Under the pieces are notes generated by a model. That model did not search any database. It was not told the origin of the DNA and worked only from the letters and a program-made list of their open reading frames with translations. From NCBI GenBank assembly GCA_903864835.1, contig CAIPHK010000004.1:64448-128447 (forward strand): a DNA stretch of 64,000 bases, given 5' to 3'. The DNA is from an uncultured bacterium. Lineage in GTDB: Bacteria > Margulisbacteria > Marinamargulisbacteria > SXXA01. Shown here one piece after another: positions 30,427 to 44,450 of this stretch. The stretch's first letter is position 1. Every line of letters starts with the position of its first letter. The position numbers and the translations under genes were made by a program.

Positions 30427-31017
30427 ATGATCCTAAAAAATTCACTAAGCCTTTTGGCCACGGGGTTAACGCTCGTGGGATTTTTTCCGTATATTCGCTC
30501 TATTTTGAAGGGCGATACCCGTCCCCATGTATTTTCTTGGGTGATTTGGGGAATCACCACCCTGTTGGCATTTGCCGGGCAATGGGCAGGGCATGGCGGA
30601 GTAGGCACATGGTCCACCGCCGTTTCCGGCGGGATCACCGTGGGAATTGCGATCTTGGCCTACTATCGCAAGGGGGACATTTCGATTCATCGGATCGATT
30701 GGATTTTTTTAATCGCAGCGGTGGCCGCTATCCCCGTCTGGATCGTCACCTCCGATCCATTTTGGGCGGTACTGCTACTCACAACCGTGGATGTCCTCGG
30801 CTTTTTCCCGACTATTCGGAAATCGATGGTCGACCCCTACAGCGAAAATTTGACCACGTACTGGATTCTACTGTTTCGTAACCTGGTGTCCATTGTGGCA
30901 TTGGAACACTATTCTGCAACGACGGTGATGTTTCCCGCTGCGATGTCGGTGACGATTGTAATCATGATTCCGCTGCTTCTTTATTACAGGTACAGGTTCC
31001 AGGATACCACGGGATAA
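30427..31017 (+). CDS. Small integral membrane protein with about 6 TM helices. Repeat family B supplies its last 5 codons and its stop.
   Basis: 196 aa with alternating hydrophobic segments. The C-terminus QDTTG* is identical to the end of the 1475-aa gene. Confidence 0.5.
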   Translation: MILKNSLSLLATGLTLVGFFPYIRSILKGDTRPHVFSWVIWGITTLLAFAGQWAGHGGVGTWSTAVSGGITVGIAILAYYRKGDISIHRIDWIFLIAAVAAIPVWIVTSDPFWAVLLLTTVDVLGFFPTIRKSMVDPYSENLTTYWILLFRNLVSIVALEHYSATTVMFPAAMSVTIVIMIPLLLYYRYRFQDTTG

Positions 31018-31069
31018 AAGGTGCCACCTTGGACCGCTCTCCGACCGGTGGTGTTGCTCCGGCACATAT
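30995..31069 (+). repeat. Repeat family B, copy 1 (ggttccaggataccacgggataaaaggtgccaccttggaccgc...ccggtgNtgttgctccggcacatat).
   Basis: It matches 40025..40099 at 95%. It contains the stop codon of gene 30427..31017. Confidence 0.8.
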
Positions 31070-31206
31070 AAAAGACCGGACACTGGTGGTCCCCAACAGG
31101 CGCCGATGGTTTAACCCAAATAATATCAATTATTAATCGAATCCTAATAAACGGTTGATACTCTGGAGTTCAAGAAAAAGGGCAATTTCTACTCCGAGGT
31201 ATTGGA

Positions 31207-31770
31207 ATGTTAATGCAAGCTCAACGTCTGGTCCGACCCGTTCTGTTAAGCCCGTCAGCCAATCGAATTTCTACTGTTGGGGCCTCGTTGCGGTCCCCGT
31301 TTTTGGAGCCCATCGGGTCAATTTGTTCGGGCGGTCTCCAGTCCATTTTGGGAAAGTCTAAAATACCGTCGAAAGTCACACCGTCGGTGACCGGCCGATT
31401 TATTCACGGGACCTCGGCGAGATCGTTGGAGTCTATCGAAAAAAATGGAATTCGTGGCCAATTTTTCTTGACGACTGACCCCAACGTGGCTTGGAATTAC
31501 GCAAAAAAACAAGCGGATTTTGATGACTCTGAAAAGGTCATTGTGGTCGTCGATGTGGATCCCAGTAAAATGATGAAAAATGAATTTGATCAATATTTTA
31601 TTACGGGTGGGGCCGCGTCAATCAAAAAGACGATTAAATACTCAAAAAAAGACACCCCCGAATGCGCGGCAGACTTGTCTGATATTGCGGCACGGGACGC
31701 TGCTGGACTTCGGTGTCAACTTCAAGTGTTGGCGTTGATCTTGGTACCGAGTTTGTTTTTGATGATCTAA
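31207..31770 (+). CDS. Hypothetical protein with a candidate ADP-ribosyltransferase (H-Y-E clade; PARP/Tpt1-like) fold.
   Basis: The motif order IHGTS ... SIEKNGIRG ... FFLTTD ... E matches the H-G-[ST] / aromatic-aromatic / Glu arrangement of the H-Y-E ART clade. It also superficially resembles Tpt1/KptA but lacks the VHLS His. Confidence 0.4.
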   Translation: MLMQAQRLVRPVLLSPSANRISTVGASLRSPFLEPIGSICSGGLQSILGKSKIPSKVTPSVTGRFIHGTSARSLESIEKNGIRGQFFLTTDPNVAWNYAKKQADFDDSEKVIVVVDVDPSKMMKNEFDQYFITGGAASIKKTIKYSKKDTPECAADLSDIAARDAAGLRCQLQVLALILVPSLFLMI

Positions 31771-31822
31771 AGACCGTGCAGTGCTACCCGGGATGAAGAG
31801 CGCCCCGGGTAGCATGGAATAG

Positions 31823-43747: not shown

Positions 43748-43924
43748 ATGAACTATCGGATCGTTGCCGCACCTTCAGCAAAAGATAATTTGCAACGTGT
43801 TGTTCGAACGGTTGTAAGGAAGCTCAAAAATAACGACTTTGGCATGCATAAAACTCGGTTCGATCAAAAAATTGAGGCATTGAACTCTCTTGATGGTGAT
43901 ATTCCTACTCGTGTAACCGCTTAA
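43748..43924 (+). CDS. Small hypothetical protein of 58 aa (MNYRIVAAPSAKDNLQRVVRTVVRKLKNNDFGMHKTRFDQKIEALNSLDGDIPTRVTA). It is not in the ORF track.
   Basis: A strong RBS aaaggag lies 7 nt upstream of the ATG, and the stop is TAA. It forms a two-gene unit with the following ORF. Confidence 0.45.
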   Translation: MNYRIVAAPSAKDNLQRVVRTVVRKLKNNDFGMHKTRFDQKIEALNSLDGDIPTRVTA

Positions 43925-44008
43925 ACCAAGCTGGTAAACGATATAGCTGTCTTTTTTATTAAAGCCCTGGAAAAAGCGCCTTGGATGGTGTTTCGGAGTT
44001 GGAACGAG

Positions 44009-44374
44009 ATGGGATTCTCTGGGCGAGATGTCGCGAAGGAAGGGTTTGCAAACCGCGTTGCGGAAAAGTTTATAATAAAAACTTATCTTGATCAGAACCG
44101 CTTTCCCTGTTTCGACGGTGATTTACAGCCTATCCAACAGTTTCACGATGGAACGCCGGCGGGTCGGCTTACGCATTTAATTGATACTGTATTGATGCCC
44201 GTCTGGCCGCTCGGCGATAGCGACGCATTTCGGGTTCGGTCCCAACTATTGACGGTATTGGCCGATGAATTGGGAGTAAAGGTTAAAGTCCCAACATCGT
44301 TAGACAATAATAGGTTTGATTTACGGCAGGTAATTGAAGGTTACTTGGCCAAGATGGACTTTGCGATTGCGTGA
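44009..44374 (+). CDS. Hypothetical protein of about 121 aa (129 aa if it starts at 43985).
   Basis: The ATG at 44009 has the RBS ggag. Repeat family B follows the stop. Confidence 0.45.
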   Translation: MGFSGRDVAKEGFANRVAEKFIIKTYLDQNRFPCFDGDLQPIQQFHDGTPAGRLTHLIDTVLMPVWPLGDSDAFRVRSQLLTVLADELGVKVKVPTSLDNNRFDLRQVIEGYLAKMDFAIA

Positions 44375-44385
44375 TTAAAGTTTAG

Positions 44386-44450
44386 GTTCCAGGATACCAC
44401 GATTAAAAAGGTGCCACCTTAGACTCAAAAGTGGAGATGGCACCTTTGAA
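44386..44450 (+). repeat. Repeat family B, copy 3, a variant with a strong terminator-like hairpin aaaggtgcca...tggcaccttt. A fragment at 41151..41173 is a fourth, partial copy.
   Basis: The first 27 nt are shared with copies 1 and 2. A 10-bp perfect stem follows. Confidence 0.7.

Follow-up and report, generated by a model that had tools for sequence, protein, structure and literature searches.

Two genes of the window (the whole 64-kb stretch of DNA that was analysed, from an uncultured freshwater bacterium) end in the same five residues, QDTTG, followed by the same stop codon, TAA. One encodes a 196-aa membrane protein that belongs to no Pfam family; the other is a 1475-codon ORF with glutamate-synthase-like domains, which is probably 5'-truncated relative to its sole known relative. 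In both cases the last codons and the stop lie inside copies of a dispersed repeat, family B. A search of the window with an arm profile found five copies, each of them on the + strand, and no other site matched. The first-pass annotation had placed the repeat at about 30995 and 40025, a variant with a 10-bp perfect hairpin at about 44386 and a fragment at about 41151; these positions hold within a few bases, the perfect stem is present, and both proteins do end in QDTTG and a TAA within the repeat. The fifth copy, c5, was absent from that annotation. The features are as follows.

17866-17883, + strand: copy c5, a solo arm, AGGTTCCAGGAACCTACG, with the perfect palindrome AGGTTCC-A-GGAACCT inside
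30427-31017, + strand: gene of the 196-aa membrane protein; last codons and stop inside c1
30991-31069, + strand: copy c1, a gene-end copy with about 72 nt common to c2; homology to the closest relative of the gene stops at 30990
30994-31011, + strand: arm of c1, AGGTTCCAGGATACCACG
31015-31017, + strand: TAA stop in c1
31018-31030, + strand: palindrome of c1, AAGGTGCCACCTT
31042-31069, + strand: right part of c1, in common with c2 only
35619-40046, + strand: 1475-codon ORF; QDTTG codons and stop inside c2
40028-40099, + strand: copy c2, with the 5' end of the arm truncated or diverged, beginning CCAGGATACCACG
40044-40046, + strand: TAA stop in c2
40047-40059, + strand: palindrome of c2
40072-40099, + strand: right part of c2
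41142-41170, + strand: copy c4, an arm-only fragment; arm at 41145-41162 with two mismatches
41160-41164 with 41170-41174: small hairpin of c4 (ACGGT with ACCGT), then TTT
44381-44450, + strand: copy c3; arm at 44384-44401, then a hairpin of its own
44407-44416 with 44438-44447: hairpin of c3, 10-bp perfect stem

Anatomy and placement of the repeat

The part common to all copies is an arm of about 20 nt, AGGTTCCAGGA-WAC-YACG, which on the reverse strand reads C-GT[A/G]G-..TCCTGGAACCT, with a short palindrome around TCC-T-GGA after the C-GT[A/G]G. When the five window arms are taken together with two arms of a copy from another organism (L001, described below), a GTAG tag is present in three of seven and GTGG in four, all of them in the form CGT[A/G]G on the reverse strand. 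A clean arm palindrome (GGTTCC-A-GGAACC) is seen in c5 only, and the remaining arms would allow a stem of 4-5 bp with a bulge. In c1, c2 and c3 the arm is followed by a spacer that holds the palindrome AAGGTG-C-CACCTT (AAGGTGCCACCTT). Between arm and palindrome, the TAA of ACG-GGA-TAA provides the stop that both genes use; it is met at once in one of the three reading frames, and both genes run into the repeat in that frame.

Copies c1 and c2 have 39 identical nucleotides, CCAGGATACCACGGGATAAAAGGTGCCACCTTGGACCGC (30999-31037 and 40028-40066), then a scrambled linker of 4-6 nt that differs in length by 1 nt. Beyond it, 31042-31069 of c1 and 40072-40099 of c2 agree at all but one of 28 nt. No match of this type arose in the shuffled window, and the repeat is far above chance level. 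The right 40 nt are private to these two copies, and c3 has in common with them TTTAGGTTCCAGGATACCACG....AAAAAGGTGCCACCTT, after which its own hairpin follows. Thus c1 and c2 look like one sub-type, in which one copy recently gave rise to the other or the two were homogenised, and the window copies as a whole look like partial or decayed members of the family. None of the five is an inverted dimer. We rejected the idea that c1 and c2 are a two-armed element in decay: neither has a second arm, and their halves are not inverted repeats, aligning with each other no better than shuffles do.

Four of the five arms begin close to where the stop codon of a co-oriented gene ends, at -24, -24, -2 and +9 nt from that point. 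Against a null of intergenic DNA plus gene edges this proximity has a P of about 2e-4, a rough figure, as the distance window was picked afterwards. Copy c3 lies between convergent genes, 9 nt past the TGA of ORF 43985-44374, and at c4 the arm begins within the TAG stop (41144-41146) of an outer-membrane-like ORF (40727-41146), with which its first bases overlap. The exception is c5, which sits in the divergent purK/MFS intergenic region, that is, in a promoter region and not at a 3' end. The copies are surrounded by ordinary chromosomal genes (purK/purE, gshA, mdh, sdhAB, dapA and others). Among the scanned ORFs of the window neither a transposase nor a RAYT gene was detected, near the copies there is no recombinase either, and some 6 kb of DNA beyond the window ends holds no further copy.

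Gene ends in the relatives

Is the shared tail a property of the proteins or of the DNA? The 196-aa protein has 768 homologues, and we inspected the C-termini of the best 120. The family typically ends in a basic cluster, most often YRRR, plus a variable tail of mostly 3-7 residues, and none of these 120 contains QDTTG. The closest relative, L007, found in at least three samples, encodes 202 aa, with an identity of 96% at the protein level and 92% at the DNA level. Its product ends in ...YYRRRVRAGGEKVKNQQ / ...LLLYYRRRVRAGGEKVKNQQ, which resembles other members of the family, for example ...YRRRVLAGG, while the window protein ends in YYRYRFQDTTG. Since the ending of L007 follows the family pattern of YRRR and a short tail, we take L007 to represent the ancestral state and the window tail to be derived. 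The DNA tells the same story at the level of single bases: L007 aligns with the window through base 30990 and has nothing in common with it thereafter, so that the homology break at 30990/30991 and the onset of family B similarity at 30991-30994 coincide within 3 nt.

The large protein offers less resolution. A single real relative, 62% identical, was recovered for it among 5.8 billion proteins, and this is too distant to define a breakpoint at c2 to the base. It ends in ...SIQDGKRR*, seven residues earlier than the window product (...SVVNGKVILDQDTTG*), and is followed by a small hairpin of its own. On the window side, c1 and c2 stay identical over a further 50 nt and more after the stop, and upstream of the five residues the two genes have no similarity. 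Identity that continues so far past the stop means that it is the DNA which is conserved and not a peptide; together with the tail-less relatives and the dissimilar upstream sequences, it leads us to conclude that the shared tail is encoded by the repeat. That QDTTG might instead be a conserved functional peptide at the C-terminus, such as a sorting or degradation tag, is suggested at first sight by two proteins having the same five residues and the same stop codon, but the comparison with the relatives refutes it and we attach practically no weight to it. The earlier proposal that the element replaced the 3' ends of coding regions and donated a new terminus is supported by these alignments with orthologues, which at c1 place the left break of homology to the base.

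A pair of filled and empty sites in which both boundaries could be read was not found. Relatives of the 196-aa gene at 67% identity lack the repeat and have no gene order in common with the window, and to the right of this gene the order differs in every relative examined. Because the L007 contig stops about 150 nt past the breakpoint, and this tail matches nothing in the window, c1 may have arisen by rearrangement instead of simple insertion. A strain free of c3 was also sought: the 129-aa ORF is not on record, and contigs with the Fic gene match the window without a difference and end short of c3.

Distribution and folding of the copies

A single match to family B emerged from the JGI metagenomes, on contig L001, which contains 40 nt of the repeat at 95% identity. 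This contig has a GC content of 40.7% versus 48.5% for the window and has no genes in common with it. Here the element is complete, AAAGGTTCCAGGATACCACGCG-ATAAAAGGTGCCACCTTCTTCT-GCGTAGTATCCTGGAACCTTT, with two inverted arms of about 20 bp around the palindrome, and forms a hairpin of about 30 bp; c5 is identical to its second arm at 19 of 21 positions. No target-site duplication flanks the hairpin, a weak result given that this is a single complete copy. That the family is present in two different organisms may point to horizontal spread or to a common trans-acting enzyme.

Elsewhere the repeat is undescribed, and in public data the family is very rare. The exact pattern CCAGGATACCACGNNNNAAAAGGTGCC has no match in 185,579 species genomes, among which the source genome is not included. 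The arm AGGTTCCAGGAWACYACG does occur in these genomes as 27 singletons in unrelated taxa, which we dismissed as chance hits; their flanks lack family features and several fall in conserved coding sequence. Viral sets contain no match for the arm, the palindrome, the hairpin pattern or the right part of c1 and c2, and blastn of c1 against plasmids and phages returned nothing meaningful. Stop-free six-frame translations of c1, c2, c3 and the L001 element had no match among 5.8 billion proteins at E <= 10. In the literature the motif strings appear in eukaryotic PCR primers alone. With Rfam 15 just three tRNAs reached the gathering score, and permissive scans of c1 and c3 gave no useful match.

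In RNA folding the L001 hairpin stands out, with -44 kcal/mol and z = -7 to -8. Copy c3 has z = -2.0 on both strands. The folds of c1 and c2 have z of about 0, no better than shuffles, and we therefore rejected a conserved RNA structure in these two copies. A T tract is missing in c1.

Proposed nature of the element and its probable effect on the two genes

What kind of element would end two genes in this way? We interpret family B as a short, hairpin-forming dispersed repeat of a REP/REPIN-like or MITE-like kind, which replaced two gene tails and supplied their stop, and we give this reading a probability of roughly 0.6. In its complete form, known from L001 only, the element would consist of two inverted arms flanking the palindrome AAGGTGCCACCTT and fold into one hairpin of about 30 bp. 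Copies would land, or be retained, at gene 3' ends in the sense orientation. Two of them may have arrived at a point some codons ahead of the native stop, replacing a short, non-conserved tail, and as the TAA of the spacer would by chance have been in frame, both proteins came to end in QDTTG. Spread would have proceeded by transposition rather than recombination, possibly through a transposase that acts in trans and leaves no target duplication, and intact hairpins could serve as terminators or 3' stabilisers. The first-pass annotation had seen here the signature of a small mobile element or recombination site. Dispersal in five copies and a complete hairpin in a different organism are consistent with this signature, and mobility is inferred from them; neither a transposase, nor a target duplication, nor a clean empty site accompanies them. 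Our reading is further weakened by the single arm, the shuffle-like folds and the private right part of c1 and c2, and by the rarity of the family in public data.

A close parallel is provided by the GTAG-tagged REPs, in which a terminal tag, with degenerate GTRG or GTGG allowed, stands next to a stem of 5-13 bp (Di Nocera et al. 2013, PMC3733652). Such units are found singly or as dimers, head-head or tail-tail, whose spacers of 20-100 bp are often structured; for most of them the distance to the 3' end of the ORF upstream is below 20 bp, and their termini often supply its stop (PMC3733652). REPs and REPINs are thought to be mobilised by RAYT (TnpA_REP) transposases (PMC3733652; Bertels & Rainey 2011, PMC3116915). 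Family B likewise consists of short units that end in a GT[A/G]G tag beside a short palindrome, and both the tag and the placement at gene 3' ends are found. Single units are accompanied, in L001, by an inverted tail-tail dimer with a structured spacer of about 25 nt that forms one large hairpin; the repeat lies no more than 20 nt away from the 3' end of the ORF upstream, can overlap it and supply the stop, and shows no target duplication. It departs from these repeats in that the arm stem is 4-6 bp and imperfect except in c5, that four of the seven arms carry GTGG, that the scanned window ORFs include no RAYT, the Y1 HUH transposase gene which such repeats flank, that the stop is the TAA of the spacer and not the TAG of the tag, and that c1 and c2 have a private right part of 40 nt which is not an arm. 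REPs number tens to thousands per genome; family B has five copies in the 64-kb window. Membership is putative: the family works like a REP/REPIN, or like a MITE that makes no target duplication.

The consequence for the genes has parallels among other small repeats as well. In Coxiella burnetii, copies of QMITE1 and QMITE2 extend over the last 1-50 bp of functional genes and provide them with C-terminal residues and/or the stop, as in the extension of EnhC in strain Dugway (Wachter et al. 2018, PMC5896051). Like family B these are small non-autonomous repeats that supply gene ends; unlike it, they come with inverted and direct repeats that are defined, and a known genome contains dozens of them. 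The two have no sequence similarity. Both arms of family B are present in one foreign copy only, that of L001 (about 20 bp, inverted), the window copies having a single arm, and the target-site duplication expected of a MITE is not seen. Rickettsia palindromic elements, as cited in PMC3733652, enter genes in frame and lengthen the protein by 20-50 residues. According to the same account, these and other intragenic REPs are palindromic repeats turned coding and tolerated in non-critical parts of proteins, in which they resemble family B; judged against that account, family B differs in merely replacing a tail of 6 to 9 residues and terminating the protein. Finally, c3 and L001 recall intrinsic (rho-independent) terminators in their GC-containing hairpins, their runs of A and T and their location at gene ends. 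The sequence of ordinary terminators is not conserved between unrelated loci and organisms, whereas the arm of family B is, and c1 and c2 lack a stable stem.

In an alternative view the repeat is no selfish mobile DNA but a 3'-end RNA module selected by the host, for instance as a terminator, as a stabiliser of mRNA or as the binding site of a regulator, with gene conversion keeping the copies alike. The strong sense-strand bias right at stop codons would fit such a module, as would the very stable hairpins of c3 and L001 with their flanking runs of A and T and the small hairpin and TTT downstream of c4; roles of this kind have been assigned to REPs in the literature (PMC3733652). For c3 and L001 this is plausible. 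For c1 and c2 it is not supported, as they fold at the level of shuffles and c1 has no T tract; c5 lies in a promoter region, relatives of both genes do without the repeat, and Rfam gives no match even at a permissive threshold. As an account of the whole family we consider the module unlikely. The direct orientation of c1 and c2, 9029 nt apart and near-identical over 72 nt of which 40 nt are found nowhere else, raises the different prospect that they are junctions (attL/attR-like or recombination scars) of an insert of about 9 kb, 31070-40027, with the gene end as duplicated target core. The segment between them contains genes that are decaying or truncated as well as a large one that is very rare, and the differing gene neighbours on the right of the 196-aa gene in its relatives are in keeping with an insert. 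Yet no integrase or recombinase is encoded between c1 and c2, base composition is uniform across the segment, and no deletion variant appears in 12 contigs that carry the 196-aa gene. An empty site should retain the core, but L007 is without it and has instead an unrelated, family-typical gene end, and its tail matches the right flank of neither c1 nor c2. Furthermore, three more sites in the window, and another organism, contain the left half of the repeat. These observations make the insert a rather doubtful explanation.

Under the reading we prefer, a short dispersed repeat of REP/REPIN-like or MITE-like kind, a bolder version can be conceived. Family B might be an orientation-specific, REPIN-like gene-end element that targets stop codons, or is selectively kept at them, brings its own stop and terminator and can thereby cap genes, and is shared horizontally among freshwater bacteria that are not related. 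Vertical inheritance is what is otherwise assumed for REPIN systems. We offer this version as a speculation with long odds.

What does the repeat mean for the two proteins and for annotation? A repeat that supplies gene ends is an established, already documented consequence of small bacterial repeats (PMC3733652, PMC5896051); with REPs and MITEs known to provide stops at gene 3' ends, the present case does not open a new question. It is a small and clean example of how selfish or semi-selfish repeats rewrite the C-termini and stop codons of bacterial proteins. For annotation it is relevant that the tail common to these two unrelated proteins is not a sign of homology.

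The large glutamate-synthase-like gene and its 5' side

The large protein is encoded by an ORF whose 3' end lies inside c2, a copy of the short dispersed repeat family B, and its glutamate-synthase domains stand in an unusual order:

Domains of the large protein (window 35619-40046, +)
Residues 101-369: glutamate-synthase central domain
Residues ~501-661: Pyr_redox-like region
Residues 1104-1368: GATase_2, at the C-terminal end

Among 5.8 billion proteins a single close relative was found, at 62% identity (locus L008), and there the gene is divided between two ORFs. Relative to L008, the large ORF is probably truncated at its 5' side: the homology begins at about window position 35568, matching residue 460 of L008's upstream ORF. 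A P-type ATPase gene on the opposite strand (ORF 33938-35872, -) adjoins the large ORF at window 35500-35900; it is split into three ORFs and is devoid of its N-terminus. The 35500-35900 interval looks like a deletion junction where two divergently oriented genes have each lost their 5' end.

Repeats and duplications

A complete, two-armed family B hairpin is present in another organism, at 4262-4330 of the JGI metagenome contig L001, where it is located between two same-strand genes. Its surroundings appear accessory, with DUF1398 and DUF1016 (YhcG-like) proteins, and the GC content of this organism is lower than that of the window's organism.

The window harbors a second repeat family, with a unit of ~70-80 nt (...CCCTTCTCTGTTGACGCAGTCAATGGAGAGGGGTGGCCGTAGGCCGGGGTGAGGTGGGG) found in both orientations:

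Copies of the second repeat family
19210-19257
23713-23797
26460-26530
26687-26773
56251-56332
56358-56437

The family includes two inverted pairs, spaced by 37 and 174 nt. With its GTAG motif and the long hairpin inside the unit, this may be another REP/REPIN-type family. Two further regions 11.5 kb apart, 11796-11946 and 23450-23606, are joined by two inverted-repeat pairs of 37 and 49 nt with 80-86% complementarity; these repeats might be members of a third family.

An 845-aa ORF (27665-30202, -), for which no Pfam match was obtained, carries two internal tandem duplications at window 28403-28653 and 29780-30015:

Tandem duplications in the 845-aa ORF
104 nt, 100% identity, period 147
95 nt, 93% identity, period 141

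Segments at the serine tRNA genes

Approximately 460 nt downstream of a tRNA-Ser(TGA) gene lies a tyrosine integrase with a fused AAA ATPase domain:

61332-61419: tRNA-Ser(TGA)
61884-62999: integrase-AAA ATPase fusion

An integrated island extending beyond the window probably has its edge in the region 61332-62999. At tRNA-Ser(GGA), window 44495-46125 is 99.9-100% identical to contigs of three assemblies. Two of the three matching contigs (L043 and L044) begin within this tRNA gene, at 46125, and all three end at 44495 or 44538, slightly before the family B copy c3 (44381-44450, +). The segment from tRNA-Ser(GGA) to c3, which encodes an AAA-ATPase and a Fic protein, may vary from strain to strain.
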